Positions 35,975 to 55,971 of a stretch of DNA of 64,000 bases are shown one piece after another (within the stretch, counting starts at the first letter, position 1; each line of letters opens with the position of its first letter). Under the pieces are notes generated by a model that did not search any database, was not told the DNA's origin, and saw only the letters and a list, made by a program, of their open reading frames with translations. The DNA lies in assembly GCA_947473125.1 (NCBI GenBank), contig CANJDH010000003.1, forward strand, positions 3,427-67,426. The letters run 5' to 3'. A program made the position numbers and the translations under genes. Source of the DNA: Burkholderiales bacterium. Its GTDB lineage: Bacteria > Pseudomonadota > Gammaproteobacteria > Burkholderiales > JAEUOS01.

Positions 35975-36715
35975 ATGCACTCCTTTGCCCTTCATTTTGA
36001 CCAGGTGTCCAAGCGCTATGGGCATGGGCCGATGATTCTTGACCGCGTATCGTTTGACGTGAAACCCGGCGAATTCTTTGGTTTGGCTGGGGTTAATGGT
36101 GCCGGCAAGACCTCGCTCATCAAGTGCATGCTGGACCTTGCCGATTTTCCGTTCGGTCAGATTTCGATCTTCGGCACCTCAAGCCGTCGCTTCGAGGCGC
36201 GTCGGCGGCTTGCATTTCTACCCGAGCGTTTCATGCCCCCGCACTACCTCACGGGCCGCGATTTTTTGCGCATGACTGCAGAACTGCATCAGCGCGCATA
36301 CGACGAAACCGCCTCATTGGGCATGTGCGAGCGACTTGACTTGACGCACGACGCCATGAATCGACCTGTGCGTGCCTTCTCCAAAGGCATGACCCAAAAA
36401 TTGGGCTTGGCTGCTGCGTTTCTTGCGGGGTCAGAATTACTGGTGCTCGATGAACCGATGAGCGGCCTTGACCCCAAGGCGCGAGCACTCGTCAAGGATC
36501 AATTGTTTGCGCTGCGTGATGCCGGTCGAACGCTTTTTTTTACATCGCATCAGCTCGCGGATGTGGAGGAAATATGCGACCGGATTGCCGTATTGCACGA
36601 AGGGCGCGTCGCGTTCGCAGGAGCTCCCAAAGCATTGCTCGACAGCACGGGGGTGGCCACCCTTGAGCGCGCCTTCTTGCACGCCATTGAGTCGACGTCG
36701 CGCAATCCCACATGA
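35975..36715 (+). CDS. ABC transporter ATP-binding protein (PilH-like in the Myxococcus sense), first gene of the filament locus
   Basis: GVNGAGKTS, FSKGMTQK, LDEPMSGLDP and TSH motifs; no adjacent permease. Confidence 0.88.
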   Translation: MHSFALHFDQVSKRYGHGPMILDRVSFDVKPGEFFGLAGVNGAGKTSLIKCMLDLADFPFGQISIFGTSSRRFEARRRLAFLPERFMPPHYLTGRDFLRMTAELHQRAYDETASLGMCERLDLTHDAMNRPVRAFSKGMTQKLGLAAAFLAGSELLVLDEPMSGLDPKARALVKDQLFALRDAGRTLFFTSHQLADVEEICDRIAVLHEGRVAFAGAPKALLDSTGVATLERAFLHAIESTSRNPT

Positions 36716-38163
36716 GTGCGCCCCCCCCCTCACAGGCGAGCCTGCCAGTATTGCTTTTGGTCGATGATGATCAATTGATCGTTGACACCCTGTCGATCGT
36801 CTTGGGCCGCGACTTCGAAGTGGTCTCGGCATCAACGAGACTGGCCGCCATCGAGTGCATGCGCGCGCTCCCAGCTCCGCCTCCCCTGGCGTTGATCGAC
36901 CTCGGGTTGCCACCGGCGCAGCACGAGCCGGACGAAGGTTACGCACTCATCAGCGCCCTGTTGTCCCATTCGCCGACGACCAAGATCATCGTACTATCGG
37001 GCCAAGCGGAGGCTGCGGCGGGTCGCCACGCCCGCGCATTGGGCGCCACTGAATTCGTGCCCAAGCCAGCCAATCCGCAGCGCCTTAAGCAATTGCTGCT
37101 GGACGCCCTCAAGGCACGCGAGGCGGAGTCCAATGATCACGTGCAACACTCCAGCCCGAGGTTTGACCCGCTTGACGTTCTCATCGGCACATCAGCGCCC
37201 ATGGTAGCGCTCAAGACACAGATCTCGCTTTACGCGGATTCGCCCTTCCCCGTATTGATAGAGGGTGAATCGGGAAGCGGCAAGGAAGTGGCGGCTTCTT
37301 GCGTGCACGCCAAAGGCGGGCGAAGCCTGAAACCATATTTCGCACTCAACTGTGCGGCCATCTCGCCCACGCTGATGGAGCCAACGCTATTTGGCTATTC
37401 CAAAGGAGCGTTCACCGGCGCCCAGTCCAACAAGGCGGGCTACTTCGAAGATGCCGGCGACGGCACATTGTTCCTTGACGAAATCGGTGAACTGCCGCTG
37501 GCACTTCAGGCAAAATTGCTGCGCGTGCTCGAGAACGGCGAGTTCAACCGGGTTGGCGAAACCCAGGTTCGCAAATCGCAAGCTCGCATTGTGGCCGCCA
37601 CCAACCGCGATTTGCGAGCGGAATGCAAGAACGGGACATTCCGAACCGACCTCTATCATCGGCTCTCGGTCTTCACGATGCGCGTGCCTGCCTTGCGCGA
37701 CCTGGGGTCGGATCGGCTGTTCTTGCTGGACCATTTCAGGCGGTTCTATTCGGAATCCACCGGTGCGGCGCCATTCAGGCTTACCGCAGCCGCCGAGGCC
37801 TTGTGGCTGGAATATCCCTTCTTCGGCAACGTCCGCGAATTGCGCAACGTCACCATCAGACTCGTGACAAAATTCGCGGGACGTGACGTAGACGCCGTTG
37901 AACTTGAGCTTGAATTCGACCCGAGCGCAATGCCCGAACCCGACAAAGTCCCGGTCAATGACGCCATGGACGACATTGCCATGCGCGAACTGGCGCGAGG
38001 TAACGGATTTTTCCTTGGCAGCACTCTCGAGGCTTGGGAGCGCGCCTACATTCACGCGGCCATGAAGCTTGCAAACGGAAATGTCAGTCAGGCCGCACGC
38101 GCCCTCGGCCTCAATCGAACGACACTATATTCGCGCATGAGTGTTCTGGAAAAACTGCGCTAA
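36712..38163 (+). CDS. sigma54-dependent response regulator (REC-AAA+-Fis HTH), PrsR/PilR-like
   Basis: LLVDDD, IDLGLPP, GESGSGKE, GAFTGA, FLDEIGE and C-terminal NVSQAARALGLNRTTLY. Confidence 0.93.
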   Translation: MSAPPPSQASLPVLLLVDDDQLIVDTLSIVLGRDFEVVSASTRLAAIECMRALPAPPPLALIDLGLPPAQHEPDEGYALISALLSHSPTTKIIVLSGQAEAAAGRHARALGATEFVPKPANPQRLKQLLLDALKAREAESNDHVQHSSPRFDPLDVLIGTSAPMVALKTQISLYADSPFPVLIEGESGSGKEVAASCVHAKGGRSLKPYFALNCAAISPTLMEPTLFGYSKGAFTGAQSNKAGYFEDAGDGTLFLDEIGELPLALQAKLLRVLENGEFNRVGETQVRKSQARIVAATNRDLRAECKNGTFRTDLYHRLSVFTMRVPALRDLGSDRLFLLDHFRRFYSESTGAAPFRLTAAAEALWLEYPFFGNVRELRNVTIRLVTKFAGRDVDAVELELEFDPSAMPEPDKVPVNDAMDDIAMRELARGNGFFLGSTLEAWERAYIHAAMKLANGNVSQAARALGLNRTTLYSRMSVLEKLR

Positions 38164-38173
38164 GGCCATCGAC

Positions 38174-39715
38174 ATGTATCTTGATCACTTCGGCCTGCTC
38201 GAGCCGCCATTCCGAATTACGCCCCACACCGACTTCTTTTTTTCGGGTGCAAATCGCGGCGCGACGCTGGAGGCCTTGCTTTACGCGATCACACACGATG
38301 AAGGCATCGTCAAGGTTACCGGCGAAGTCGGTTCCGGAAAGACCATGCTGTGCCGGGTTCTGATCGAGCGTTTGCCCGCTGAAGTCGAGACGGTGTACCT
38401 GGCGAACCCGTCCCTCGAGCGCGAAGAGATCCTGCAAGCGGTTCTCGACGACCTCAAGTTTACGGCACCCGCGGAGCAGAGGGCCAACCAATTGCTGCGC
38501 ACGTTGCAGGAACACCTGATTGGCCTGTATGGCGCCGGAAAGCGCGTGGTGCTGCTGATTGACGAAGCGCACGCGATGCCGCCGGAGACTCTGGAGCAGA
38601 TCAGACTCTTGTCAAACCTCGAATCAAACCGGCACAAGCTGTTGCAAATCGCTTTGTTCGGCCAACAGGAGCTCGATGATCACCTCGGTACAACGCTGCT
38701 TCGCCCGTTGCGCGAACGCGTGACCCATAGCTTTCGACTCGAGCCCTTGGTGCACGCCGACGTCGGTCAGTATCTGATGTTCCGCATGCGCCAAGCCGGA
38801 TACAAGGGCCCGGACCTGTTCGATCAAGGGGCGCTAAAGCTGATCGCCAAGTCTTCGGAAGGGCTGACCCGCAGACTCAATATCCTGGCCGACAAATGTC
38901 TCCTTGCGGCATTTGCCGAGGGCGAGCACGGCATCACGCGAAAGCATGCGCTGGCCGCAATCAGTGATTCTGGTTTTGCGCCGCTTGGTCCGCGCGGTGC
39001 CGGATTCCTACCATCCTTGCGCAAGCAGTGGGCCCTGATGTTGGCAGCTGTCGTCATCATGGCCGGTGGGATCGGAATGATGTTGTATGCCCTCGCCTTG
39101 ATCCGGGGCGATGTGGTTGCAGGGACAAAATCTCCCTCTGCGGGTTACGTCGCAGCGTCTGGTCCGCTCCAGCCGTCGGACGCGCGACCCAAGGCCCCGC
39201 CGGCAGTAGCGGACTCCTCCGCCACATCAACGGGAGCGGCAGTGGTCGCGCAGGCAATCGGGCCCGGCACGCAGTTGCCACAGGTTTCCACGACAGTCGC
39301 ATCGTCTAACTCAACCCTCGCCGAACAATCGCCGAAGCCAGCCGCCCCCTCCCCCCAGCCGACTCCACGTGTAAGCGCTCCTTTCCCGTCTGCCACGACA
39401 GCGAACGAACAGTTGAGCAATGACGGGGTTAGAGTCGCCACTGCCAAAACGCCCCTGGCCGCGGGCAGGCAGGAAAAATCGAGGGCCATACCCCTCCCCG
39501 AACCGTTGTTTTCTGCCAACATTGCTTCAAAGGGCCAACGCCCCGTGCCGCGGCCCAAACCAAGGTATTCGGCCGCGACGCGGGCCGCCCCGGCCCGGCC
39601 CGTTCTGCAAGTGGCGGCGCCTCTCACAAGAACCTCGTCTCGCCCGGCCGAGCCAGCATCGCCCGCCCTCCCCGAGTTGCCTTTGGACGGCCGCACTCCG
39701 TCGCGCGACGATTAA
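38174..39715 (+). CDS. ExeA/GspA/MshM-like AAA ATPase with TM helix and Pro/Ala/Ser-rich tail
   Basis: MYLDHFGL..PF.ITP, GEVGSGKT, LIDEAH and LFGQQEL; TM near residue 290; start ATG 38174. Confidence 0.88.
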   Translation: MYLDHFGLLEPPFRITPHTDFFFSGANRGATLEALLYAITHDEGIVKVTGEVGSGKTMLCRVLIERLPAEVETVYLANPSLEREEILQAVLDDLKFTAPAEQRANQLLRTLQEHLIGLYGAGKRVVLLIDEAHAMPPETLEQIRLLSNLESNRHKLLQIALFGQQELDDHLGTTLLRPLRERVTHSFRLEPLVHADVGQYLMFRMRQAGYKGPDLFDQGALKLIAKSSEGLTRRLNILADKCLLAAFAEGEHGITRKHALAAISDSGFAPLGPRGAGFLPSLRKQWALMLAAVVIMAGGIGMMLYALALIRGDVVAGTKSPSAGYVAASGPLQPSDARPKAPPAVADSSATSTGAAVVAQAIGPGTQLPQVSTTVASSNSTLAEQSPKPAAPSPQPTPRVSAPFPSATTANEQLSNDGVRVATAKTPLAAGRQEKSRAIPLPEPLFSANIASKGQRPVPRPKPRYSAATRAAPARPVLQVAAPLTRTSSRPAEPASPALPELPLDGRTPSRDD

Positions 39716-39832
39716 CATTCCATAACCCAACCAGAAAATTGTTCATTTCTGTTAGTTATCAAGCACTCCGTCGTGCGACGATTAACACTCCATAACCCAA
39801 CCAGAAAATTGTTAATTTCTGTTAGTTATCAA
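39693..39832. repeat. 70-bp tandem duplication (2 copies, 3 mismatches)
   Basis: 39693-39762 vs 39763-39832: GCACTCCGTCG(C/T)GCGACGATTAACA(T/C)TCCATAACCCAACCAGAAAATTGTT(C/A)ATTTCTGTTAGTTATCAA. Confidence 0.97.
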
Positions 39833-39898
39833 TAATATGCCTCGGCATTTGCATGTCGATACCGGCATTATGCTTCCTGTGCTATTCTCAGACACTAA

Positions 39899-41938
39899 AT
39901 GCGCCCTGAATTGACACCCATCGGCCCCAATCCTGCGGCCCCGGCACGACTGCATAGCGAAGGTGGCGGCAGATGGGTACTGCTCGCCACCTTGTTTGCA
40001 TTGTGCGTTCAGGGTTGTGCGCCTGCGCCGATCAAGCCGTCAGTACAGCATGTGGCGCGAGAGAATGCGCCGGTGCAGACCCCGGGCGACATTCCCCCGC
40101 CCGTGCTTTCGTTACCCCTCCCGCCACCGCCGCAAGCAACACCTCGCCAGGAAACCTACAGCGTAGTGGTCAACGAGGTTCCGGTTCGCGACCTCCTGTT
40201 TGCGCTTGCCAGGGATGCCAAGATCAATGTAGACGTCCACCCCTCGATTTCAGGAAATGTGACGCTGAATGCCATCAACCAGACGCTCCCACAACTGCTT
40301 TCGCGGATGTCGAAGCAAATAGAGTTGCGCTGGGAAATGAACGGCGCAAACCTTTCGATTTTGCCTGACTCGCCGTTCATGGCCTCGTACACGGTTGATT
40401 ACGTCAACATGACGCGCTCTGCGGCAACCAACGTCAACGTTGCGACCCAAATCAGCACCACGGGTGCCGGCGGCGGCGGCGGTTCAGGCAACAACAACTC
40501 GTCGACCGCCCTTACCAGCAATAGCGCCAATTTCTTCTGGGAATCACTGGCGCAAAATATTTGCAACATTGTGGTCACGACGCGATCCATCTCGCGCCAG
40601 GAACGTGCCGATCAGCAACAGGCACGAGATCGCGATTTCGACAACCGCCTCAATATCGCGCGTCAACTCGCTTCAGCAGGCTCCGGCGCCCCGCAATTGA
40701 TGCAGCAAGTCACCGGGGCGGCAGGCGCGGCAGGCGGCTCCACTGCGGCGCCAAGCGTGAACTGTGCCCAAACCGGCTACAACCTTGCGCAGAGCGCGAC
40801 CGGCACTGCCGCTGCCGCTGCAGCCGGCGCCGCAAACCCGGTGATCAGCAATCGGGAAGCCGGCATCATCATGGTGTTTGCGACGCAACGGCAGCATGAA
40901 CGCGTGCGCGAATTCATTGATCGCGTCGTCTCAAGCGCGCGACGCCAGGTGTTGATCGAGGTTACCGTCGTGGAAGTCCAGCTGTCCAGCCAGTATCAAC
41001 AGGGTATCAACTGGCAGCGTCTGAGAACCACCAACAATGGATTCTCGATTACCCAGCAACCATCAGGCGCGCTTCCAGGCGGTGCCGCCGCTGCCGGCAC
41101 CGGATTTACCGGTGCCCAGCCTAATCCGATCACGCCATTGCTCGGAAGCGTCGGCAGCACGGGCCTGTTTCAGGTTTCTTACGTCAACTCGGGGTCTGCA
41201 CTGGGCAACATTGCGGCTGCGCTTTCCCTGCTCGAGTCGTACGGCAACATCAAAGTACTCTCGAGCCCGAAGATGTCAGTGCTGAACAATCAAACCGCAA
41301 TGCTGAAGGTAGTGGACAACCTGGTGTATTTCACCGTAAGTGGCACCTCCACTCCCGCGACCGCTACCACCGCAGCCACCAATTCGTTTACGACAACTGC
41401 ACAGTCGGTGGCGGTCGGGTTTGTCATGTCCGTGACGCCACAAATCGACGACACCGATCAAGTCACGATCAACGTACGTCCTTCGCTGTCGCGCGTGGTC
41501 AGTACGGTGCAGGATCCCAATCCGTCCCTGGTCCGTGCGAACGGCACCACCATCGTCAATGCAGTGCCGCAGATTCAGACCCGTGAAATGGAGTCGATCC
41601 TCAAGATTCCCAACAATCAGGTCGCGATCATGGGTGGATTGATGCAGGACAACTCCAACCGGGGGGTCGACGGTGTTCCCGGCTTATCGCGCATCCCTGT
41701 GGCAGGCGAGTTGTTCAATTACCGCAATGAAGTGTCGAGCAAGTCCGAATTGGTGATCTTCCTGCGCCCGATCGTCATCAAGGACCCTTCGCTTGAAGGC
41801 GACTTCCAGAAGTTTCGTGATTTTCTGCCCAGCCAGGATTTTTTCAGCAAGCCCAATCCGATGCAACCAGCCCCGTTTGACCTGGGACGCAACACCAGCA
41901 ACGCGGACTCGGATCAGGGTTCCGCGAAAAGGCAATGA
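39899..41938 (+). CDS. secretin, MshL-like lipoprotein
   Basis: Lipobox VQGC; YSVVVNEVPVRDLLFALARDA, RQVLIEVTVVEV, LSSPK..VLNNQ, VPGLSRIP and KSELVIFLRP. Confidence 0.9.
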   Translation: MRPELTPIGPNPAAPARLHSEGGGRWVLLATLFALCVQGCAPAPIKPSVQHVARENAPVQTPGDIPPPVLSLPLPPPPQATPRQETYSVVVNEVPVRDLLFALARDAKINVDVHPSISGNVTLNAINQTLPQLLSRMSKQIELRWEMNGANLSILPDSPFMASYTVDYVNMTRSAATNVNVATQISTTGAGGGGGSGNNNSSTALTSNSANFFWESLAQNICNIVVTTRSISRQERADQQQARDRDFDNRLNIARQLASAGSGAPQLMQQVTGAAGAAGGSTAAPSVNCAQTGYNLAQSATGTAAAAAAGAANPVISNREAGIIMVFATQRQHERVREFIDRVVSSARRQVLIEVTVVEVQLSSQYQQGINWQRLRTTNNGFSITQQPSGALPGGAAAAGTGFTGAQPNPITPLLGSVGSTGLFQVSYVNSGSALGNIAAALSLLESYGNIKVLSSPKMSVLNNQTAMLKVVDNLVYFTVSGTSTPATATTAATNSFTTTAQSVAVGFVMSVTPQIDDTDQVTINVRPSLSRVVSTVQDPNPSLVRANGTTIVNAVPQIQTREMESILKIPNNQVAIMGGLMQDNSNRGVDGVPGLSRIPVAGELFNYRNEVSSKSELVIFLRPIVIKDPSLEGDFQKFRDFLPSQDFFSKPNPMQPAPFDLGRNTSNADSDQGSAKRQ

Positions 41939-41954
41939 CTGAAGGAGCACCCGC

Positions 41955-43382
41955 ATGAGTCTCCTGATGAATGCGCTGAAGAAGGCGGAAAAGGCCAAAC
42001 AGTCCGGCCAACCCGGAGCGGAGACGGCTGCAGGAACGGAGTCGAATCGCAACTTAGCCCAGGAGTTGGGGTTGGATCCGCCGTCGGGTCACGGCACTGC
42101 CTCCGGGGTCGCGGCGTCGCCAGCATTGGCAAGCGCTAGCGAGCCATCCTTGGTTCCGTTGAAGGAAATGGAACTTGCGCTTGCGCCAGAACTTGACTCG
42201 CCGGCGCCACCTCTCGCTGAAGCCGCAGTTCGCGCCCCTGGACGGGCAGCATCGCGCCCAACTGGCAGCACGGATCGGGGCAGCGCGCGTGCCGTCTTTT
42301 CCGCAAAAAATGCGCCCAAGGTCAATTCGAAGAAGCCGTTTTACACGCTCGTCGGCGTTTCGCTGGTTGCCACTGTCGGCTATGGTGTCTACCTGTGGAT
42401 GCAGGTGTCCCTTCCGGCGCGGCCGATCACCGCAGCGGCAGCACCCGTCCCAGCGTCACCCGCCAGCCCGCCGCCGAGCGGAAAAAGTACTGCCGGTACT
42501 GAACCGCTCTCACCAGCACCACTCGGGACCGGATCGGGAATCGCCTTTTCCGAACCTTCGGCCGCCGCCCCCCCCCCCCAGCTACCGAAAGGCAGTGATG
42601 GGGATGGCCCAGCGCCTGCTCAGAACGGTACCACCGCACGCGGCGGAGAACAGAATGCGGAGCGTCCTGCATCGGTTGCGGTACGGCGTGCGCCCAGAGG
42701 GCAGCGCGACGCGGCCAGCGCCGTCGGGGGCGCGGGTATCGAGAGTCCCGCCAGTCTGCGTATTGCGCGCAACACGAGCGTCGCCACGGTGAACCCGGAT
42801 GTCCTTGCGGGCTACACGGCGCTTCAGGCTGGTGATCTCGATCGCGCCGGGCAGGCATATGATCGCGCGCTGCGCAGCGAACCCTCCAATCGCGACGCGA
42901 TGCTCGGTGCTGCAACCGTGCTTTTGCGGCTGGAGCGCACCGATGCTGCAGAAGCCTATTTCCGCCAATTGCTGCGCCTTCATCCGAATGACACCTACGC
43001 GACGGCGCAGCTCGCCGCGTTGACGGCGCGGGGCGATCCGATCGGCGCTTTAAGCCAGGTCAATTCGCTGATTGCGCGCGAGACGGAACGCTCGGAGAGT
43101 GCGTCCGGCAGTGGCGCCCTTGCCTTCGTGCAGGGCAACCAGCTTGCGGCGCAGAGCCGATGGCCCGAAGCCCAGCAGGCCTATTTCAACGCACATCGGG
43201 CCGATCCCGGCAACGCTGACTATTGCTACAACCTCGCGATCAGCCTTGATCGCATCCGCGAACCCCGGCTTGCCCGGGATTTCTATCGGAAAGCGATTGA
43301 GTTGTCTCGGGGTCGGGTGGCCGGATTCGACTTGGCGCGAGCGCAACTGCGCCTCAACCAAATCGAAGGTTCTCTAAAATGA
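41955..43382 (+). CDS. membrane-anchored TPR protein (GspB/MshN-like architecture)
   Basis: N-terminal MSLLMNALKKAE, TM near residue 130, Pro-rich linker and C-terminal TPRs (AYDRAL, YCYNLAISLD). Confidence 0.75.
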   Translation: MSLLMNALKKAEKAKQSGQPGAETAAGTESNRNLAQELGLDPPSGHGTASGVAASPALASASEPSLVPLKEMELALAPELDSPAPPLAEAAVRAPGRAASRPTGSTDRGSARAVFSAKNAPKVNSKKPFYTLVGVSLVATVGYGVYLWMQVSLPARPITAAAAPVPASPASPPPSGKSTAGTEPLSPAPLGTGSGIAFSEPSAAAPPPQLPKGSDGDGPAPAQNGTTARGGEQNAERPASVAVRRAPRGQRDAASAVGGAGIESPASLRIARNTSVATVNPDVLAGYTALQAGDLDRAGQAYDRALRSEPSNRDAMLGAATVLLRLERTDAAEAYFRQLLRLHPNDTYATAQLAALTARGDPIGALSQVNSLIARETERSESASGSGALAFVQGNQLAAQSRWPEAQQAYFNAHRADPGNADYCYNLAISLDRIREPRLARDFYRKAIELSRGRVAGFDLARAQLRLNQIEGSLK

Positions 43383-43404
43383 GCTGGAACGCAATCGACC
43401 GCGC

Positions 43405-45138: not shown

Positions 45139-45151
45139 AAAAGAACCAGCA

Positions 45152-47976: not shown

Positions 47977-48692
47977 CGCCTGCCCAAACCCGCGATCTGG
48001 CCGTGGCGGCGGTGCTCTGCGCCGCACTGATAGCCGCTGGCGGAGTCGCGGCATTTGGCGGTGAGTGGTTCAAAAACGAAGCGGTCAAGCGCGAGCAGGC
48101 CATGCGCAGGCAGGCCCTGGAAGCCAGTAGTCGTTTGGCGCGAGCCAACGAAGAGCGCGAGCAAATCGGTGCTTATATGCAGCGCTATCAGACCTACCTG
48201 CGCATCAAGGCCATCAGGCCCGGCGTTGGGGCCAGATCCGATCAGGACCCCGAGCAGGGTGAACGGCTCGACTGGATAGAGCGGATCGTCGAAGCTCGCG
48301 AGGCCCGGGCATTGCCGCGCATCGTCTATTCGATTGCGGCACGCAAACCCTACGACGGCCTGGTGGCGCCGGGGCCGGGCCTAAGTTTTTACGCCAGCCG
48401 CATGAAGCTGGAGCTCGGCTTGATGCACGAAGGTGATTTCATTGACTACTTGCGCCGCGTCGCCAACCCGCCGGCCGGCATCTTCCAGATCGAGCACTGC
48501 GCGCTGGAGAATCTCGGATCCGACAAACGGGCCAAAGGCAACCCGGGCACATTGGCAAAGCTTGGCCTTGCCAATGGCGGGAAGGCGCCGCAAGTTCCGC
48601 AAGAAGCCAATCTTTCTGCCATTTGCGAGATCGACTGGATTACCCTGGTTGAAGATACGGCAACCGGAACTCCCGGAGGTACGGCCAAATGA
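47973..48692 (+). CDS. GspM/PilO-like assembly protein, putative
   Basis: N-terminal TM, coiled coil and a ferredoxin-like C-terminus (MKLELGLMHEGD); operon position. Confidence 0.5.
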   Translation: MTPAQTRDLAVAAVLCAALIAAGGVAAFGGEWFKNEAVKREQAMRRQALEASSRLARANEEREQIGAYMQRYQTYLRIKAIRPGVGARSDQDPEQGERLDWIERIVEAREARALPRIVYSIAARKPYDGLVAPGPGLSFYASRMKLELGLMHEGDFIDYLRRVANPPAGIFQIEHCALENLGSDKRAKGNPGTLAKLGLANGGKAPQVPQEANLSAICEIDWITLVEDTATGTPGGTAK

Positions 48693-49207
48693 CCCCCCGC
48701 ATGGCCCTCTGGTCAGCCGTCGTGACAATCGTCGGCTTGAGCAATGTCGCGGCGGCGCTCGCCCAGGAGGCACGCCTGGGGCGCCTCTTCTTTACTCCCG
48801 AAGAACGCCAGAAAATCAATGAAAAGCGCGGGGTCGTCAGCAACGTCAGTGCGGCACCACAGACCGTCATTGTCAATGGCATGGTGGTCCGGTCGGGGCA
48901 ACCGCCGGTGTTGTTTATCGACGGCAAGGAATCGATCGGCGCGGCCAGCAACGCCAGCGCGGCGCGGCAGTTGGCGCGAGGGGTGCCGCTGAAAACCGAG
49001 AGCGGGCGCACGATTGACGCAAGACCCGGTCAAGTGATTGATCTGGCCAGCGGACGGGCGATCGAAAACTATCAATTGGTCCCGGGCGTCGCCGAATCCG
49101 CGCCCAGGGAATCCTTACCCGGCGCGGGTACGGGTGTAGTGCCGCCAGCCCCTTCCGCAAGCGATCAAAGAAACGCCAGCAACCGGCAGCAGGCGCCCAT
49201 CAGGTAG
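48689..49207 (+). CDS. GspC/PilP/MshK-like periplasmic protein, putative
   Basis: Signal peptide followed by LGRLFFTPEER and a small beta domain (VIVNGMVVRS); operon position. Confidence 0.5.
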   Translation: MTPRMALWSAVVTIVGLSNVAAALAQEARLGRLFFTPEERQKINEKRGVVSNVSAAPQTVIVNGMVVRSGQPPVLFIDGKESIGAASNASAARQLARGVPLKTESGRTIDARPGQVIDLASGRAIENYQLVPGVAESAPRESLPGAGTGVVPPAPSASDQRNASNRQQAPIR

Positions 49208-49239
49208 GCGCACGGCCCTGACGAATTGACTTTGCACGT

Positions 49240-50517
49240 ATGAGTCGAGACCTCAACTTGTGTCGCTCTTCCCCACCCGCCCGACGACAGCGCGGCGTCG
49301 TGCTGCTTGTGATCCTGCTGGTCACGATGGCATTCGGTGGATATTTTGGCGTGCGCGCGCTCAATGCGGCCGTGGCTCGTAGCGGCATCCATGAAATGGA
49401 GTCGGAGAAGATCCTCTCCCAAGCGCGGCAAGCGTTGCTTGCCTGGTCGGTCACCACCGACGACAGTTTGCCCTCGGCTACAGTCAGCGGCCTGTTCGGC
49501 ATCCGCGCGTTTCGTCCTGGCAACCTGCCCTACCCCGACCTCGCGACCGGGCTCACCAGTACCACGCCTTCTGATGGCGTTCGCGATATCGGATGCGCCA
49601 GAACCACCTGGGCCGGTAGCGGCACACTGCGCCCGATTACTGCCACCCTGACAAACACCCAGAAGACCGGGATCCGCTGTTTTGGCCGACTACCGGTGGC
49701 AACACTGGGCCTTGACGCCGTCGCTGGCAGCTCCGCTGACGTTTCCGGCAGGTGGCCGTGGTATATCGTGTCGGCCAACCTGGTCAACATCAACCAGGAT
49801 TGCCCTGCCCGCCTCGATGGCACACTAACCAACACCGCACTTGCGACCGGCACCAACGCGTGTGGAAACATCAACACGCCTACCGCGCCGTTTCAGTGGA
49901 TCACGGTACTGGATGAGTACGGGGCCGTCATCTCCACGCGGGTAGCCGCGGTCGTGATTCTCCCCGGCCAAGTCACGACCCGCCAACCCGGCAACGTGCG
50001 CCAGACGCGCTCGGCAACGGCGCTTCCCAGCGCCTTTCTCGACACCGTCGACAATGCCGCGTGCGTTGGAGGTCGGTGCGACAACGGCCGGCTCAACGCC
50101 ACGCCTCTGACCTTCATCCAGTGCGTCAAACCCGCATCAACCGCCGGTGATGCGCGCTTCAGCGCCAACTACGCGTGCACCGACCGTCTCACCTACATCA
50201 CCGTGGATGAGTTGTTTGCCTACGCCGCAAAGCGCATAGAACGTGAATTTACGGCCTGCCTGGCGGAGTTTGCCCAAAACAATGCGAACAAGTACCCATG
50301 GGCGGCGCTGGCCGGTAGCCCGTCGTCAGTCACGGTCGGGAACACCAGTGGCAGCTTTCCCTCCAACGACGCCAGCGCCAACCCGACTTGTGCGAATCAG
50401 CAGGTTTACTGGGGGGGTTGGCAGCGTGCCGCCACCTACACCGTTGCGCCAGACCAGAGCGCGGCGCAATTTTCATTTGCATCCCTCGCCGGCAGACCTG
50501 CCGTTTCGGTGCCCTGA
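49240..50517 (+). CDS. large PilX/GspK-type minor pilin
   Basis: Prepilin site RRQRG|VVLLVILLV lacking Glu5 (typical of PilX/GspK); 10 Cys in the mature part. Confidence 0.7.
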   Translation: MSRDLNLCRSSPPARRQRGVVLLVILLVTMAFGGYFGVRALNAAVARSGIHEMESEKILSQARQALLAWSVTTDDSLPSATVSGLFGIRAFRPGNLPYPDLATGLTSTTPSDGVRDIGCARTTWAGSGTLRPITATLTNTQKTGIRCFGRLPVATLGLDAVAGSSADVSGRWPWYIVSANLVNINQDCPARLDGTLTNTALATGTNACGNINTPTAPFQWITVLDEYGAVISTRVAAVVILPGQVTTRQPGNVRQTRSATALPSAFLDTVDNAACVGGRCDNGRLNATPLTFIQCVKPASTAGDARFSANYACTDRLTYITVDELFAYAAKRIEREFTACLAEFAQNNANKYPWAALAGSPSSVTVGNTSGSFPSNDASANPTCANQQVYWGGWQRAATYTVAPDQSAAQFSFASLAGRPAVSVP

Positions 50518-51407
50518 TGAGAACCAAAACCCACTTCCTTCGTACTGGCCAGCACGGATTCACCCTCGCGGAAATCGCCATTGTCACCATGATTTTGGGA
50601 TTGCTGGTCGTCGGCGTCCTTGGCTCGCTCTCCAATCAGGTCACCCAGGGGCGCATCACCCGCACCGAGCGGCAGCTGGAGGAAATCCGCGAATCGCTGC
50701 TCGGCTTCGCCGCCCGCACCGGATACTTGCCATGCCCCGACACCGATGGCGACGGCATCGAAAATGCGCCGAACCGGGCAGTCGCGACGCCACTCGCCTG
50801 CGCCTCCATTGAAGGTTTTCTGCCCTGGGTCACCCTCGGCGTTTCCCAGACCGATGCCTGGGGCATTCGATTTCGCTATCGCATCAAGGATGAATTTGCG
50901 CGTGCCAGCGCCGCCAACTCTCCCGCCGTCGGTGGCCTCACACCAATCGCAGGATGTGTGGCGACGGCTGGCACTACCGATCCCGCATCGACGGCCGACC
51001 CGAACAATTGCACCTTGGACATTCAGGACACCGGCGACATCCAGATCAATACGCGCGGCGGCGCTACCGGAAAGACATTGATCACACAAGCCGGCGGCGA
51101 CCGCGTTTCAGGCATCGGCGTCCCAGTGGTAATCATGTCGTTCGGGCCCAACGGCTTTGGTGGTGTCGACGCATTCGGCAATGTGCGTCCGTTGCCGCCA
51201 GTATCGAATGTCGACGAGAACACCAATGTGACCACCCCAAAACCGGCATTCGTCCCGGTGTTCGTCGCACGAACCAGCAAAGGCATTGACGCCGGCTGCA
51301 GCGAAACCGCGGCAACAGGAGCACTATGCGAATTCGATGACATCGTCACCTGGATTCCGACACCACTGCTCGTCAGCAAGTTGCTTCAGGCGAATCGCTT
51401 GCCCTGA
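50517..51407 (+). CDS. type IV minor pilin / pseudopilin
   Basis: QHG|FTLAEIAIV class III signal with Glu5; LPCPDTDGDG; start ATG 50517 overlaps the preceding TGA. Confidence 0.85.
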   Translation: MRTKTHFLRTGQHGFTLAEIAIVTMILGLLVVGVLGSLSNQVTQGRITRTERQLEEIRESLLGFAARTGYLPCPDTDGDGIENAPNRAVATPLACASIEGFLPWVTLGVSQTDAWGIRFRYRIKDEFARASAANSPAVGGLTPIAGCVATAGTTDPASTADPNNCTLDIQDTGDIQINTRGGATGKTLITQAGGDRVSGIGVPVVIMSFGPNGFGGVDAFGNVRPLPPVSNVDENTNVTTPKPAFVPVFVARTSKGIDAGCSETAATGALCEFDDIVTWIPTPLLVSKLLQANRLP

Positions 51408-51426
51408 CCTGCACACGCCACGAACT

Positions 51427-51473
51427 GACGTCCTTCGAAAACCGTTGGTAGCCAACGGTTTTCGAAGGACGTC
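51427..51473. repeat. perfect 22-bp inverted repeat with a 3-nt loop
   Basis: GACGTCCTTCGAAAACCGTTGG-TAG-CCAACGGTTTTCGAAGGACGTC, between convergent genes. Confidence 0.95.
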
Positions 51474-51585
51474 CACGAAGAGGCGCATGGATGGCCTCTT
51501 ACAGGTTGCTACCTTGACCAGATTTTGCAGGCGTGACGCGCGCGGCGCGCGCCCAAACTCGGCGGCGACGATCGCCGGAGTCGCT

Positions 51586-53355
51586 TCAATCGGCGAGGGG
51601 CGCGTTGGTCAACACAATGCGCACTCCGCCAGGACGATTCTCGGCGATGGACAAGCGATAACCCAACTCAATGGCTTTGCTCGCAAGCTGGTAAAGGCCT
51701 ATGCCCAACCCGTCGCGTGAAGCAACCGGCGCAATAAAAAGGCGCGCGGCCACCGAGGGCTCGATCTCCGCCCCATCATCCTCAACCGCCAATTCGATCG
51801 AGCTCGCCTCGCATGTCAGGGAGACGCGTATCTGCAGGTCGACCTTGTTCGAGCGTTTGCGCAGCGCGTTGCTAATCAGATTGTCTGCTGCGCTGTCGAA
51901 TAAGGACTCAGCGATCGGCAAGTTGGTTTCGATGCCCGCAGAGTGAAACCGTATATCGTCGCGCTGATGCCTTTTGCGCATCGATATCCACCATGTTTGC
52001 AGGCGCAGCATACGCTGGCTGTCCGTGGAAGGTGCCTGCAGTTTGGTGATGGTGGCTCCAAGGCGCTGCGCTATCGCAGGCAGCTGGCGCCCAATCAATT
52101 TGCGTACTTCGCCCTCACCTTCGACATAGTTGACCGCTTCGATGAGCCCGTTGAGTGATTGCAGCAGGTTCTTGACATCATGCGTCAGGCGCGCGCCGGT
52201 TTCGTGCACCGCACGCAGGTAATTTTGTTGGACCAGTTTGGCTTCGCGCGCCTTGGCCCAATGAAACTCGGCAGCAAGACCGATCAGCAGCCGGAAATGC
52301 CATAAGAAGGCAGGCGACAACACCTCGCGGGTACGCAGCAGCACCTCGATTTCCCGGGACGAGTCATTGCCCTGCTCCTGGATCGCTATGCGCACCGCAT
52401 CGCCCCCTTCGGTCGCGCCGAATCGCCCGTCCATTCCTGCGCCGCGCCACTCGGCTCCGGCAACAATCGCCAACGCGCCCAGGGCACGCATTGCACCATT
52501 GAAAAAATCCGCAGGGTCCGTCTCTTCGCGGTGCAGAGCCGTCAGCTTGTCCAGCCACACTTCGTAAGGCAAACCAAACGAAAGCAGGTAGCGTGACAGC
52601 AGCGCGGGCAACACGCCCGCGCCCGCGCCGCCCGCGCCGTCGCCCTGGTCAAAACGTGCCGAAAGCCACGAAAAGGCCAGCAGCAGGGAGCTGATGAATA
52701 TCAGCGTGATCGCCATGCTTTCGAGGTAGCCGAGCTGACTTAACGCCATCAGGGAGATGCCAAAAAAAGTAACCAGCAGCAACAGACCAACGACCCAGGC
52801 GGTGTAAACCAGGTCGTAAGGAGCGCCCACGCCGGTCTCTGCAGTCTCTGCATCCCTTTTACCCCCGGCAGCCTGATCACCACGCCATGCCATTGCGCCC
52901 AGAACCAGAAGGGCCGCAGCCAGGCCCCGCGTCAGCCATTCACGCGCGATGGCTCCGGGCAAACCATTGCGCAGGTGCGCTGGCAATAGCGCCGGCACCA
53001 CCAGCAGGAACAGCAACACCACCAAAAACCCCAGCGCAGCGAGGTAGAAGCGCCGCTCTGCGCGGGGGGCCAGCATGGTGATGCGGCCGGCCGTCAGGCC
53101 TGTCAACAGTACGCTCCAGCCCAGCAGCACCCATGCGCTGAGCAATGCAGAGAGCAGTGCGCCGGAGATCGCGATGCTGGCAATTTGCACAGTGGAAAGC
53201 TTGAGGCGCTGCGGGATCACCGGCTGCCACAGCAACACCGCGCCGATATGAGCAAAGAAGAACATGGGCCGCCAAACCGCATTGTCGTAGGCAGCCGGCG
53301 CAAACAGCAGCGCCAGAGCGAGCACCAGCGCACGATTGCGATAGCGATCAATCAT
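51586..53355 (-). CDS. multi-TM sensor histidine kinase (PrsK-like H-box)
   Basis: About 7-8 hydrophobic segments; H-box ARLTHDVKNLL, N-box NLISNA, G1 EDDG and G2 GLGIGLYQ; start uncertain (53355 or 53391). Confidence 0.9.
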   Translation of the reverse strand: MIDRYRNRALVLALALLFAPAAYDNAVWRPMFFFAHIGAVLLWQPVIPQRLKLSTVQIASIAISGALLSALLSAWVLLGWSVLLTGLTAGRITMLAPRAERRFYLAALGFLVVLLFLLVVPALLPAHLRNGLPGAIAREWLTRGLAAALLVLGAMAWRGDQAAGGKRDAETAETGVGAPYDLVYTAWVVGLLLLVTFFGISLMALSQLGYLESMAITLIFISSLLLAFSWLSARFDQGDGAGGAGAGVLPALLSRYLLSFGLPYEVWLDKLTALHREETDPADFFNGAMRALGALAIVAGAEWRGAGMDGRFGATEGGDAVRIAIQEQGNDSSREIEVLLRTREVLSPAFLWHFRLLIGLAAEFHWAKAREAKLVQQNYLRAVHETGARLTHDVKNLLQSLNGLIEAVNYVEGEGEVRKLIGRQLPAIAQRLGATITKLQAPSTDSQRMLRLQTWWISMRKRHQRDDIRFHSAGIETNLPIAESLFDSAADNLISNALRKRSNKVDLQIRVSLTCEASSIELAVEDDGAEIEPSVAARLFIAPVASRDGLGIGLYQLASKAIELGYRLSIAENRPGGVRIVLTNAPLAD

Positions 53356-53503
53356 GGGCGCGCCCAGAAGTGTGACGTTATTGAGTTGCATGACGGTGCC
53401 AAGCATACCGCGCTGCGCGAATTCACGCGTCGCTCGCACCGAAAAGAGCAGGCTGCCGTTAAAATCCATCTGCACGCTCACCGTCAACCGGAATCTTCAA
53501 CCC

Positions 53504-54280
53504 ATGTCGTATTTGCCAGGCACATCGACCATCGCACGGTTTGCGCTCGTTGAGGCCCTCCGCGGCAAACTGGCGCTGGCGGTGGTTGCAGTGGCGGTGC
53601 TCGGGCTTGGGGTCGCGCTGTTTCTGGGGGAAATGGCGATTACCGAAGCGGCGCGCATCCAGGGCACGGCGCTGGCGGCATTCAACCGGATGGCGGCGGC
53701 CCTCCTGGTTGTCAGTTTTGTCATTTCGGGGATCAGCCGTGAGCAAGCCGACAAGGGCCTTGAGATGCTCCTTGCGCAGGCCATCCCGCGCGCCAGCTAT
53801 GTGATCGGCAAATTGATCGGTTACACCTTGCTGGCATGGCTTGCGGCATTGGTGTTTTGCGCGCCCCTGCTGATATTCGCCCCAGCATTGAACGTCGCAG
53901 CGTGGGGCATATCGCTGGCGCTGGAACTTACTCTGGTGGCAGCGGCGGCACTGGCCTGCTCGCTGGTCATCGGACAAAGCGCTCTGAGTATGCTGATGGT
54001 GGCCGCGTTCTATACGCTGAGCCGGGTAATGGCGAGCATTCTGGCCATCACATCAAGCCCGGTTGGATCGATCGGTTCGCCAAGCTTCAAGACCATGGGT
54101 TGGTTCATGGGCGGGTTGGCGGCGTTGCTACCGGGATTTGACCGTTTTGCCTCCGCAGCCTGGCTCTGGGAAGGCAGCGCCGTGTGGTCGCATCTACCTG
54201 CGCTCCTGATTCAGTTCGTGATCTACCTGCCGCTGCTCGCTGGGGTGGCGCTGTTCGACTTCTACCGAAAAGACCTGTGA
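53504..54280 (+). CDS. ABC-2-type permease (PilI-like in the Myxococcus sense)
   Basis: IARFALVEALRGK and SREQADKGLEMLLAQAIPRASYVIGKLIG signature; 6 TM; start ATG 53504. Confidence 0.82.
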   Translation: MSYLPGTSTIARFALVEALRGKLALAVVAVAVLGLGVALFLGEMAITEAARIQGTALAAFNRMAAALLVVSFVISGISREQADKGLEMLLAQAIPRASYVIGKLIGYTLLAWLAALVFCAPLLIFAPALNVAAWGISLALELTLVAAAALACSLVIGQSALSMLMVAAFYTLSRVMASILAITSSPVGSIGSPSFKTMGWFMGGLAALLPGFDRFASAAWLWEGSAVWSHLPALLIQFVIYLPLLAGVALFDFYRKDL

Positions 54281-55023
54281 GTCGATTGTTACCGACTTGG
54301 CTGCGTCGGGACCAACGACGCCTTTCACTGGTGCCGATTCCGGTAGTGTTAATCCTGGCCTGCGCCCTGCTGTGGCAGACCATCTGGTCTGCGATGTATC
54401 CGCGCACGCACCCAGGCGCGGAAGACCTTACCGAGCCACCATCGGCAGCATCGATCCGCGTATCGAGCCTCGACGAGTCGGTAGCCTATGCCAAGCTGAT
54501 GAACCTGACCCTTCAGGCCCATGACAACCAGCCCGGGATCAGCCTGCCTTTTCGTCACCTCGATTACGTGCGCATCGAAGCGTGGCTGGGACGCATACTC
54601 GAGCTGGACCCGACGGGGCAGTACCCGCTGCTCGCGGCCAGCCGCCTTTACGGAACCGTGGACGATCCGGTCCGCCAGCGGCGCATGCTCGATTTTGTGC
54701 AGCGCCAGTTTCTGGCCGATCCCAACCAGCGCTGGCAGTGGATGGCTCATGCCGCTTACGTGGCCCGTCACCAGTTGCGCGATCTGCCTCTGGCTGCGCG
54801 TTTCGCGGAATCGTTGCGCTTGCATGCCACCAGTCGGCAGGTGCCGGCCTGGGCGCGCCAAATGGAAATCTTCCTGCGTGCCGACATGAACGAATTTGAC
54901 ACCGCAAGGGTGCTGCTTGGCGCTCTTTTGGCGAGTGGGCAGGTAACCGACCCGTCGGAATACCGGTTCCTGGCCGGGCGCTTGACGGAGTTGGAGACTC
55001 GGAGAGGCCCCGCCGGAAAGTGA
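54277..55023 (+). CDS. membrane-anchored alpha-helical (TPR-like) hypothetical protein
   Basis: GTG 54277 overlaps the permease stop; one N-terminal TM; helical repeats (WLGRILELDP). Confidence 0.7.
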   Translation: MSRLLPTWLRRDQRRLSLVPIPVVLILACALLWQTIWSAMYPRTHPGAEDLTEPPSAASIRVSSLDESVAYAKLMNLTLQAHDNQPGISLPFRHLDYVRIEAWLGRILELDPTGQYPLLAASRLYGTVDDPVRQRRMLDFVQRQFLADPNQRWQWMAHAAYVARHQLRDLPLAARFAESLRLHATSRQVPAWARQMEIFLRADMNEFDTARVLLGALLASGQVTDPSEYRFLAGRLTELETRRGPAGK

Positions 55024-55037
55024 CGGAGTTTCGTCAC
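55020..55037 (+). promoter_or_regulatory. candidate enhancer (bEBP upstream activating sequence)
   Basis: Inverted repeat GTGACG-gagttt-CGTCAC about 100 bp upstream of the sigma54 site; a degenerate copy TGACG-N6-CGACA follows at 55041-55056. Confidence 0.55.
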
Positions 55038-55116
55038 CTTTGACGCCGTTACGACATCGTACCTCCAGCTTAACCTGGAATTTCGCGAAAAACTGGCCGT
55101 TTGGCGTTAAAATAGA

Positions 55117-55129
55117 TATCAATGGTTTG
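55117..55129 (+). promoter_or_regulatory. IHF site
   Basis: TATCAATGGTTTG matches WATCAANNNNTTR and lies between the enhancer and the -24 element. Confidence 0.65.
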
Positions 55130-55143
55130 GCACGCCGCTTGCA
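55128..55143 (+). promoter_or_regulatory. sigma54 (-24/-12) promoter of the major pilin
   Basis: TGGCAC-GCCGC-TTGCA, consensus GG-N10-GC, 70 bp upstream of the pilin ATG. Confidence 0.9.
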
Positions 55144-55212
55144 ATAGCAGTCTTAGAACACGTTTTATTCCTTTAGCCCATAGATAAGTATCACAGCCCA
55201 AGGGGGGTTAGC

Positions 55213-55914
55213 ATGCGCAAACAGCACGGATTTACACTGGTTGAAATTGCCATCGTTCTGGTCATCATCGGCCTGCTGCTTGGCGGCATCCTGCGCGGCC
55301 AGGAGCTGATCCAGAACGCTCGCGTACGCAACATCATCGATCAGCAAAATGGCATCAAGGCGGCATTTTTCGGTTTTCAGGATCGCTTTCGTATGATTCC
55401 CGGTGATTTGACCGCCGCGCAGATTGCGCAAGTGGGTTCCGGCGTGATTGTCGCCAGTGCGGCAGGAAACGGCCAGATTGACGCTGCTGACGCCGCTGCC
55501 GCCTTCCAGAACATCACCATCACCGGCTTTATCAGTTGTCAGACCTGCAATGCCGCAGCGGCGGCGGCGTCTTCCGCGGTCAACAGCCCGGTCAACGTGT
55601 ATGGCGGCGTGTTGCAGTTGGTCACCGATACCGTCTATTCCACTCCGACGCAGATTTTGCCCGGCGACGGCCAGATCCGCCACAATATCAAGACCGGCAA
55701 TCTGATTCCCTCCAACGTGTTGTACGAAGCCGACGTCAAGGTTGATGACGGTGTTCCGAACGGCGGGCAGTTCCGCTTCAGCAACTGGATGGCTGCGGGC
55801 GGTGTGGCGCCCACGGTGGCCTGCGAGAACGGCGCGGTCAGCGCAACCACGCCGTGGCAGACCACGGCAAACAACTTCGAACTCAACTGCGGGGCGGCGA
55901 CACTGATCAATTGA
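55213..55914 (+). CDS. large type IV prepilin, probable major pilin
   Basis: MRKQHG|FTLVEIAIVLVIIGLLLGG; strong RBS, own sigma54 promoter and terminator. Confidence 0.9.
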   Translation: MRKQHGFTLVEIAIVLVIIGLLLGGILRGQELIQNARVRNIIDQQNGIKAAFFGFQDRFRMIPGDLTAAQIAQVGSGVIVASAAGNGQIDAADAAAAFQNITITGFISCQTCNAAAAAASSAVNSPVNVYGGVLQLVTDTVYSTPTQILPGDGQIRHNIKTGNLIPSNVLYEADVKVDDGVPNGGQFRFSNWMAAGGVAPTVACENGAVSATTPWQTTANNFELNCGAATLIN

Positions 55915-55941
55915 TTTCCGCCTGACTGTTCTTCGCAGTGC

Positions 55942-55971
55942 AAAAAGCCCGCCCCCGTAGCGGGCTTTTTT
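55942..55971. terminator. bidirectional intrinsic terminator
   Basis: AAAAAGCCCGC-ccccgta-GCGGGCTTTTTT between the pilin and kef genes. Confidence 0.88.

Follow-up and report, generated by a model that had tools for sequence, protein, structure and literature searches.

The assembly of type IV filaments is usually drawn without an ATP-binding cassette (ABC) transporter. Among described filaments, the MSH pilus of Vibrio, Aeromonas and Shewanella falls in a class defined by Denise et al. in 2019, in whose account a gene for a prepilin peptidase is missing from every MSH locus (PMC6668835), and PilT is reported to be required for MSHA retraction (PMC7096442; 10.1101/2022.05.31.494186). The Myxococcus xanthus PilGHI transporter, TCDB 3.A.1.144.5 (PMC3924187), is reported to be a requirement both for assembling the pilus and for exporting PilA (PMC3924187, PMC3724824, PMC6060248). 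The 64,000-nucleotide (nt) stretch of Burkholderiales DNA analyzed here (contig CANJDH010000003.1; hereafter the window) hosts a 16-gene type IV filament locus (Table 1) which, judged from sequence, is an old, widespread and apparently unstudied branch of type IV filaments related to the MSHA pilus. All its parts are of known kinds, and the locus is therefore not a new class of machine. What is new in this analysis is the assignment of the locus to a single clade and a predicted enhancer, both from sequence comparison, and a structural model in which the pilin contacts a tetratricopeptide repeat (TPR)-like protein. No study of this clade was found in the literature searched. The full systems table of Denise et al. 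may classify some of its members, and the rearranged MSH clusters mentioned for Sideroxydans and Gallionella (PMC3770913) may belong to this clade or to canonical MSH.

Trees of the assembly ATPase, the inner-membrane platform and the secretin were obtained by quick IQ-TREE runs, with SH-aLRT support only. Reference genomes were picked by MshL score and msh gene order, and complemented by named PLSDB records; V. cholerae was not included. The window ATPase falls in a 34-row clade (support 100) apart from a 17-row MSH clade (100), and the platform in a 19-row clade (100) apart from MSH (100). In the secretin tree an 18-row clade (98) lies beside MSH (99), both within an MshL-like group (96) that contains a third clade. 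Joining the window protein to MSH, away from its own clade, was rejected by the approximately unbiased (AU) test in the three trees (p-AU 1e-17 for the platform, 2e-7 for the secretin and 2e-4 for the ATPase), whereas a position as sister to MSH was not (p-AU 0.32, 0.44 and 0.71, in the same order). Secretin and platform group apart from Xcp/Gsp references, and ATPase and platform fall outside the PilB and PilC orthologues of type IVa pili (T4aP). The sequence-only reading of this DNA had proposed a coherent filament system nesting in neither MSH nor the type II secretion system (T2SS), and the three phylogenies and the p-AU tests bear it out. On these comparisons canonical MSH is the closest known relative of the clade, and the locus is taken to work like an MSH system without being a member of it. 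MshL-type secretins are diverse beyond the clade. Loci L149, L150, L154 and L156 form the third MshL-type clade, with the order secretin-TPR-ExeA-ATPase-platform, and are apart from both MSH and the locus clade in the three trees; several genomes of other classes (in the series G042-G189) carry three to five MshL-type secretins, some of them 800-1000 amino acids (aa) long.

Like MSH systems, the locus combines an MshL-like lipoprotein secretin, MshM and MshN counterparts, an MshEN-type ATPase and a platform, in a single locus devoid of peptidase and PilT; matches to MshI and MshK are weak. The locus differs in its gene order (M-L-N-E-G-I-J-K), in its major pilin, which is 227 aa long and by HHalign shares with MshA no more than the first 24 N-terminal columns, in having two large minor pilins rather than MshB/C/D/O/P/Q, and in the addition of its own sigma54 pair and of an ABC module; moreover, a canonical MSH locus coexists in the same genome, on contig C26. 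The likeness to T2SS (Gsp/Xcp, ExeAB) is confined to a GspE/F-family core, an ExeA-like ATPase and a weak GspM match in one relative, the separate placement of secretin and platform, the missing GspG-K set and the large, separately regulated pilin setting the two apart. The secretin, ATPase and platform are not orthologues of T4aP PilQ, PilB and PilC. The locus had been read as a mixture of four designs; its core is instead one clade with MSH-type parts (see the HHalign values in Table 1). The secretin scores 249.7 bits with the MshL model TIGR02519 (cut-off 250.2), or 250.5 when scored with its neighbors, against 170.7 bits with the GspD model (cut-off 351) and 114 with the PilQ model (cut-off 284).

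The region at the best secretin match was fetched from 19 of 40 relatives searched, belonging to 11 families. The core order recurs in them wherever the contig reaches, and mla genes adjoin the locus in 15 of the 19. A scan of species genomes listed at least 594 relatives and gave at least 80 loci; of these 80, the 31 with full flanks were counted, and 49 partial loci were dropped. Nine core genes are present in 31/31 loci, minor pilin 1 in 30 and the activator in 29; the kinase (18/31) and the pilin (13/31) are both partly cut off by the flank. Since the nine core genes recur in every full-flank locus, the gene order is conserved beyond chance. A platform profile (E 1e-105) matched 41 of the 401 genomes of a phylum-wide sample, two of them borderline. 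The clade spans the phylum, from Burkholderiales to other genomes of the same class and to other classes, and the expectation that the novelty would be functional rather than taxonomic is supported. Two modules come and go as blocks, one made up by the sigma54 kinase/activator pair, the other by the ABC ATPase, the permease and the TPR-like protein. Co-occurrence of the ABC and regulatory genes with the core, as anticipated earlier, was found in the neighborhood survey. This locus and a canonical MSH locus are arranged back to back in three Oxalobacteraceae-type genomes (L042:2449-20000, L133 and L152), where the two-component pair has been lost; L133, from the cultured environmental strain Duganella sp. 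SG902, carries the ABC module. A recent mosaic or island was considered and rejected, given a GC content (57-63%) similar to that of the flanks, the adjoining mla genes in 15/19 relatives and the single clade in three trees.

PilT or PilU, a prepilin peptidase, PilY1 and a GspG-K set are missing from the locus, as had been pointed out. For PilT/U and the peptidase the statement does not extend to the genome, five PilT/U-family ATPases over cut-off and two prepilin-peptidase matches being encoded outside the locus; the missing peptidase and PilT are thus a feature of the locus only. The description of the system as self-contained was overstated, as a second, unlinked pair of genes matching the locus minor-pilin profiles also resides elsewhere (C69:2306-4210); this pair is possibly an alternative tip. 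A non-retractile or single-motor filament had been proposed on the ground of these missing genes, yet MSH loci also lack a peptidase and use PilT. Eight genomes, from three families, are alphaproteobacteria-like by flanking genes such as NDUFA12 and DUF2155, which we take to be alphaproteobacterial markers. All eight have this clade together with PilT and PilU, and in six of them the clade ATPase is the only full-length PilB/GspE-type match; because this is the sole machine of its type in these six genomes, next to PilT/PilU, a non-retractile filament is not supported. In the three of these six for which secretins were listed, those other than that of the clade adjoin TadA-like ATPases. PilT lies 5.5-7 kb from the clade ATPase in G068 and G187 (7 kb in G187), the order in G068 being TPR-PilT-PilU facing ABC-M3-M2-M1-platform-ATPase, and in G175 and G247 peptidase genes are found ahead of the secretin. 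From this we infer a PilT-retracted pilus in the alphaproteobacteria-like genomes; by analogy, retraction in the window genome probably occurs through a shared PilT. Type IV pili have been reported, without detail in the source, in environmental Rickettsiales (PMC9352585).

The kinase/activator pair is predicted to be a compact, one-target sigma54 switch of the pilin gene. Among 41 pilins from kinase-bearing loci, 39 are preceded within 110 nt by a sigma54 box matching 9 or more of 11 positions, vs. 0 of 13 pilins from loci lacking a kinase in the stretch fetched, related genomes in these counts not being independent; the box score is reached in 89 of 3000 random 315-nt windows. Enhancer dyads (at most one mismatch) are found in 35/41 kinase-bearing loci vs. 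1/13 kinase-less ones, and in 6% of shuffles. The pilin promoter, itself a member of the motif training set, is the top of 1577 boxes in the genome (31.1; next 18.6), and no secreted-substrate gene under the enhancer was found in this ranking. The promoter and terminator assigned to the pilin by the sequence-only reading were recovered as a sigma54 box and a hairpin. The pair had been likened to PilSR, and it resembles PilS/PilR of T4aP in being a sigma54 kinase/activator pair whose predicted target is the pilin gene; its best matches, both below cut-off, are instead PrsR (TIGR02915, 315.7 bits, cut-off 502.6) and PrsK (TIGR02916, 41.8, cut-off 300), and the enhancer is its own. The PrsK/PrsR system of PEP-CTERM loci similarly consists of a membrane kinase and an NtrC-type activator, the latter working from an enhancer that lies upstream of the sigma54 promoter, but its enhancer motif is reported to end in TTTACA (PMC1569441), unlike the TGWCR-N6-YGWCA dyads found here. 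The response regulator is 32-36% identical to the three other sigma54 activators of the genome.

Three pilin-like genes only are present in the locus, and two carry an N_methyl match; the GspG model gives a score of 31 vs. a cut-off of 89. The major pilin exceeds the 166 aa from which pilins are defined as large (PMC11046646). Its AlphaFold2 model has a pLDDT of 71, and the nearest folds are the pilins PilA1, CofA and TcpA, with middling Z scores (7.3-7.7). The pilin gene is duplicated in genomes G001, G031 and G161. In G001 (L010:3410-4990) near-identical pilin genes lie in tandem; all of them have a sigma54 box, and the enhancer match is weaker at the second. Three alphaproteobacteria-like genomes of about 2 Mb (G044, G068 and G147) harbor 17-21 scattered paralogues of the major pilin family each, alongside a single assembly ATPase, a pattern suggestive of a variable repertoire of pilins. 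In G289 (L040:13492-16884) minor pilin 1 has grown to 1130 aa, and has no Pfam match.

The ABC ATPase, permease and TPR-like genes are all-or-none, being found in the same 15 of the 31 full-flank loci though about 17 kb apart. In the phylum sample the TPR-like profile matched 34/401 genomes, all of them among the 41 platform-positive ones, and in most lineages the TPR-like gene immediately precedes the pilin. The AlphaFold2 model of its product has one transmembrane (TM) helix and a TPR-like solenoid (pLDDT 91.5). Fold searches retrieved no specific solved relative (Foldseek none at E 0.001; VIA best Z 11.2, a generic TPR). The profile gathers 780 clusters at 50% identity, with no match in PLSDB plasmids; the matches listed by profile searches are all close relatives, and an ESM Atlas lead, at 0.89, goes to TPR clusters rich in Bdellovibrionota. 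In complex predictions the mature pilin and the TPR-like protein score 0.81 (median of three runs), the best of three controls 0.00; 116 of 157 solved pairs attain the mark used, as do 2 of 215 mismatched ones, counts that apply only roughly to the alignments used. Contacts agree by at least 91% among runs, and partner pLDDT is at least 81. In the model the alpha1-C helix of the pilin (prepilin residues 31-59) lies in the TPR groove against R123, L124, H158, Y161, H165 and W192, with G47, A50, F53 and G54 on the pilin side. A small residue (G/A/S) is found at pilin position 47 in 42/42 ABC-linked vs. 7/12 ABC-less pilins, at position 50 in 39/42 vs. 5/12; T or L occupies position 50 in three of four further ABC-less genomes. 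Pilin length, Cys, Ser/Thr, sequons and charge do not separate ABC-plus from ABC-less loci. The modeled complex suggests pilin handling by the ABC module, a role also proposed for PilGHI of Myxococcus. Both consist of an accessory protein, an ATPase and a permease tied to a large pilin gene; here, however, the genes of the module lie in separate parts of the locus, the machine served is not a T4aP and losses are frequent, and PilG and the TPR-like protein are likened by module make-up and description, not by sequence.

The preferred reading, to which a probability of about 0.6 is assigned, is that of an adhesive pilus able to retract. Its growth would depend on how much pilin is supplied under sigma54 control, and an optional complex of ABC and TPR proteins would handle pilin at the inner membrane. 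A full envelope-spanning set is inherited as one clade, including secretin, MshM- and MshN-like helpers, ATPase and platform, three putative alignment proteins, both minor pilins and the large pilin. A housekeeping prepilin peptidase would mature the pilins, the assembly ATPase would polymerize the large pilin on a tip made of the two minor pilins, and a PilT encoded elsewhere would retract the filament, as in Vibrio MSHA; its likely job would be attachment. The machine genes would form one operon, and the kinase/activator pair would turn on the pilin gene alone, through the tandem enhancer and the sigma54 promoter; with only the pilin gene so switched, filament growth would be gated by subunit supply. 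ABC ATPase, permease and TPR-like protein are predicted to form one complex, the TPR groove taking the periplasmic half of the first pilin helix, and ATP hydrolysis might power a step in which pilin is held, extracted or handed over at the inner membrane, by a module optional in some lineages. A bolder version, put forward as tentative and less likely than not, treats the clade as an old family of its own, made up of retractile pili and providing some Alphaproteobacteria with their main PilT-driven pilus. The ABC module would in that case be an ATP-driven pilin handler, its TPR subunit capturing the alpha1-C helix and its transporter extracting, loading or exchanging subunits at the inner membrane. 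Several observations weigh against the preferred reading. The assignments of M1 and M2 are weak. No PilT is linked to the betaproteobacterial locus, and all PilTs of the genome might belong to its other pili. The set used to derive the enhancer motif includes the pilin promoter of the window. Interface conservation on the TPR-like protein is marginal (p 0.046); seven relaxed ABC-less pilins come from one lineage, while the five other ABC-less pilins keep the small face; the small alphaproteobacteria-like genomes have the TPR-like gene, yet most pilin paralogues examined there have large residues at 47 and 50. The TPR-like gene was not found in four of five ABC-less genomes searched, the fifth giving a short weak match. 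Lastly, the ABC module is missing from 16/31 loci, and cannot be generally needed for assembly.

The preferred reading and its rivals address different steps, and overlap. In the same pilus the ABC module might move a glycan, lipid or matrix component, the TPR-pilin contact being a modeling artifact. The module is dispensable in several lineages, six small alphaproteobacteria-like genomes have permease and TPR-like genes after the secretin with no pilin adjoining, the nearest solved relative of the permease is the peptide exporter PmtD (a weak match, E 8e-4), and TPR grooves readily accept helices. A cargo of this kind has reportedly been proposed for Geobacter Xap. Against such a cargo stand the 0.81 of the pilin-TPR complex vs. 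0.00 of the three controls, the position of the TPR-like gene directly before the pilin in most lineages, and the finding of no glycosyltransferase or synthase gene among the locus genes, and the proposal is considered rather unlikely. The filament of Betaproteobacteria might alternatively be a static or motor-independent adhesive fiber that no longer uses PilT, as the sequence-only reading had it; pilT is found in 0/31 full-flank loci, and the pilin is large, with a fold closest to type IVb and Clostridium pilins. MSHA pili are nevertheless retracted by PilT according to PMC7096442, alphaproteobacteria-like members link PilT/U to the machine, and all 41 platform-positive genomes are PilT-positive, though so are 232/401 overall; a static fiber is deemed unlikely.

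A protein secretion system of the T2SS kind, its endopilus short and confined to the periplasm, would account for the presence of an ExeA-like ATPase and for the similar scores of the assembly ATPase with the GspE and PilB models (516 and 510 bits; PilB cut-off 676, both below cut-off), and a grouping of the ATPase of the clade with T2SS is not rejected (p-AU 0.52). Yet the single 227-aa pilin has a dedicated sigma54 promoter and terminator, pilin duplications and the large sets of pilin paralogues described above are at odds with an endopilus, as are the PilT/U pairing in alphaproteobacteria-like genomes and the lack of a GspG-K set or of a secreted-substrate gene under the enhancer, and the genome has a separate T2SS on contig C125. 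This is judged the least probable reading. Scarcely more credit is given to a competence pilus for DNA uptake in place of an adhesin. In Campylobacter, the Cts uptake system includes an MshL/MshM-like gene set, and in genomes with no other PilB/PilT-type machine the clade is the sole candidate for DNA uptake by a pilus; on the other side, no comEA-, comEC- or dprA-like gene is found among the locus genes, large pilin repertoires better fit surface or host recognition, and the genome has separate T4aP genes, with their own PilQ and PilC.

All 16 open reading frames (ORFs) are intact, contiguous and in the order given by the sequence-only reading, and family scans agree with the labels it had used. 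The locus is flanked by mla genes on one side and by kefC-kdsD-lpt-rpoN on the other. Genes mostly overlap or are less than 35 nt apart; the only larger gaps are those that part the secretin (183 nt) and the pilin (189 nt) from the preceding gene, and those around the kinase. For four genes another start codon is likely, at 38174 for MshM/ExeA, at 45152 for the platform, at 50517 for minor pilin 2 and at about 53355 for the kinase. A scan for sigma70 promoters and terminators gave matches at chance level. Scans of the window proteins gave no family match for M1, M2 or M3, nor for minor pilin 1 or the TPR-like protein. M1 had no match in Pfam or PDB sequence searches either, and its ESM Atlas neighbor cluster carries PilM_2 on 26% of members; the M2 of one relative matches GspM (E 8e-5), and the M3 of one relative PilP (E 0.03). 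In the MshEN domain of the assembly ATPase a Pro replaces the first Arg of the cyclic di-GMP motif. The MshM-like ATPase lacks a C-terminal SPOR-like domain here and in two congeners (L016, L037 and L038 compared); most relatives keep it, with a SPOR match at E 0.002 in one of them. A frameshift was rejected, because the congeners end alike and no SPOR remnant is found in other frames. Elsewhere in the genome, four short T4aP-type pilin genes with identical N-terminal sequence lie in tandem (C32:28888-31751), and three more GspE/PilB-family ATPases reside outside pilus operons on C28, C70 and C77, the C28 one passing the TfpB model.

Table 1. Features of the type IV filament locus, in window coordinates
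Feature	Position	Strand	Evidence or remarks
Type IV filament locus	35975-55914		16 ORFs, intact
ABC-2-type ATPase, 246 aa	35975-36715	+	PF00005 (ABC_tran); Walker A, signature, Walker B and H-loop present
Sigma54 response regulator	36712-38163	+	Receiver, AAA+ with GAFTGA, Fis helix-turn-helix (HTH_8)
MshM/ExeA-type ATPase, one TM helix	38174-39715	+	AAA_22; HHalign to MshM 100% over 273 columns
70-nt tandem duplication, 96% identical	39693-39832	+	Over 3' end of MshM-like ATPase gene; absent from two congeners
MshL-like lipoprotein secretin	39899-41938	+	Lipobox-like VQGC; MshL model; tree
MshN-like TPR protein	41955-43382	+	Pfam TPR; HHalign to MshN 99%
Assembly ATPase	43405-45138	+	MshEN and T2SSE domains; NF053729 62.6 vs. 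38; trees
Inner-membrane platform, GspF/PilC/MshG family	45152-46357	+	T2SSF; tree
M1, probable PilM-PilN/MshI-like alignment protein	46354-47976	+	Weak; HHalign to MshI 52%
M2, probable PilO/GspM/MshJ-like protein	47973-48692	+	Weak; position and topology; HHalign to MshJ <50%
M3, probable PilP/MshK-like periplasmic protein	48689-49207	+	HHalign to MshK 80% over 49 columns
Minor pilin 1	49240-50517	+	Class III-like leader without Glu5; PilX/GspK-like position; kept in 30/31 loci
Minor pilin 2	50517-51407	+	Leader G/FTLAE (slash, cleavage site); N_methyl; kept in 31/31 loci
Membrane histidine kinase	51586-53355	-	HDVKN H-box; HATPase_c; at least 5 hydrophobic segments
ABC-2-type permease	53504-54280	+	6 predicted TM helices; weak ABC-2 match, E 2e-4
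Membrane-anchored TPR-like (helical) protein	54277-55023	+	No named family; predicted pilin-binding ABC subunit
Tandem enhancer dyads TGWCR-N6-YGWCA	55021-55056	+	Predicted activator sites
Sigma54 -24/-12 promoter of pilin gene	55128-55143	+	11/11 consensus positions
Large major pilin	55213-55914	+	227 aa mature; 4 Cys; N_methyl
Hairpin with A- and T-tracts	55942-55970	.	Between pilin and convergent kefC-like gene; probable bidirectional terminator

PilT-type pili of Alphaproteobacteria might be identified with this clade. Piliation in Myxococcus depends on PilGHI, and no mechanism is given in the papers cited above. If the pilin-handler reading is true, the ABC module would define a biogenesis step without a described mechanism and would account for modules of the PilGHI type, and it could enable cells that have one machine for about 20 pilin paralogues to choose or swap subunits. 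The named pilin-TPR interface makes the role of the module testable by point mutation, natural loci with and without the module serving as controls. An ABC transporter predicted to grip the filament's own pilin suggests a testable job for pilus transporters whose role has long been unclear.

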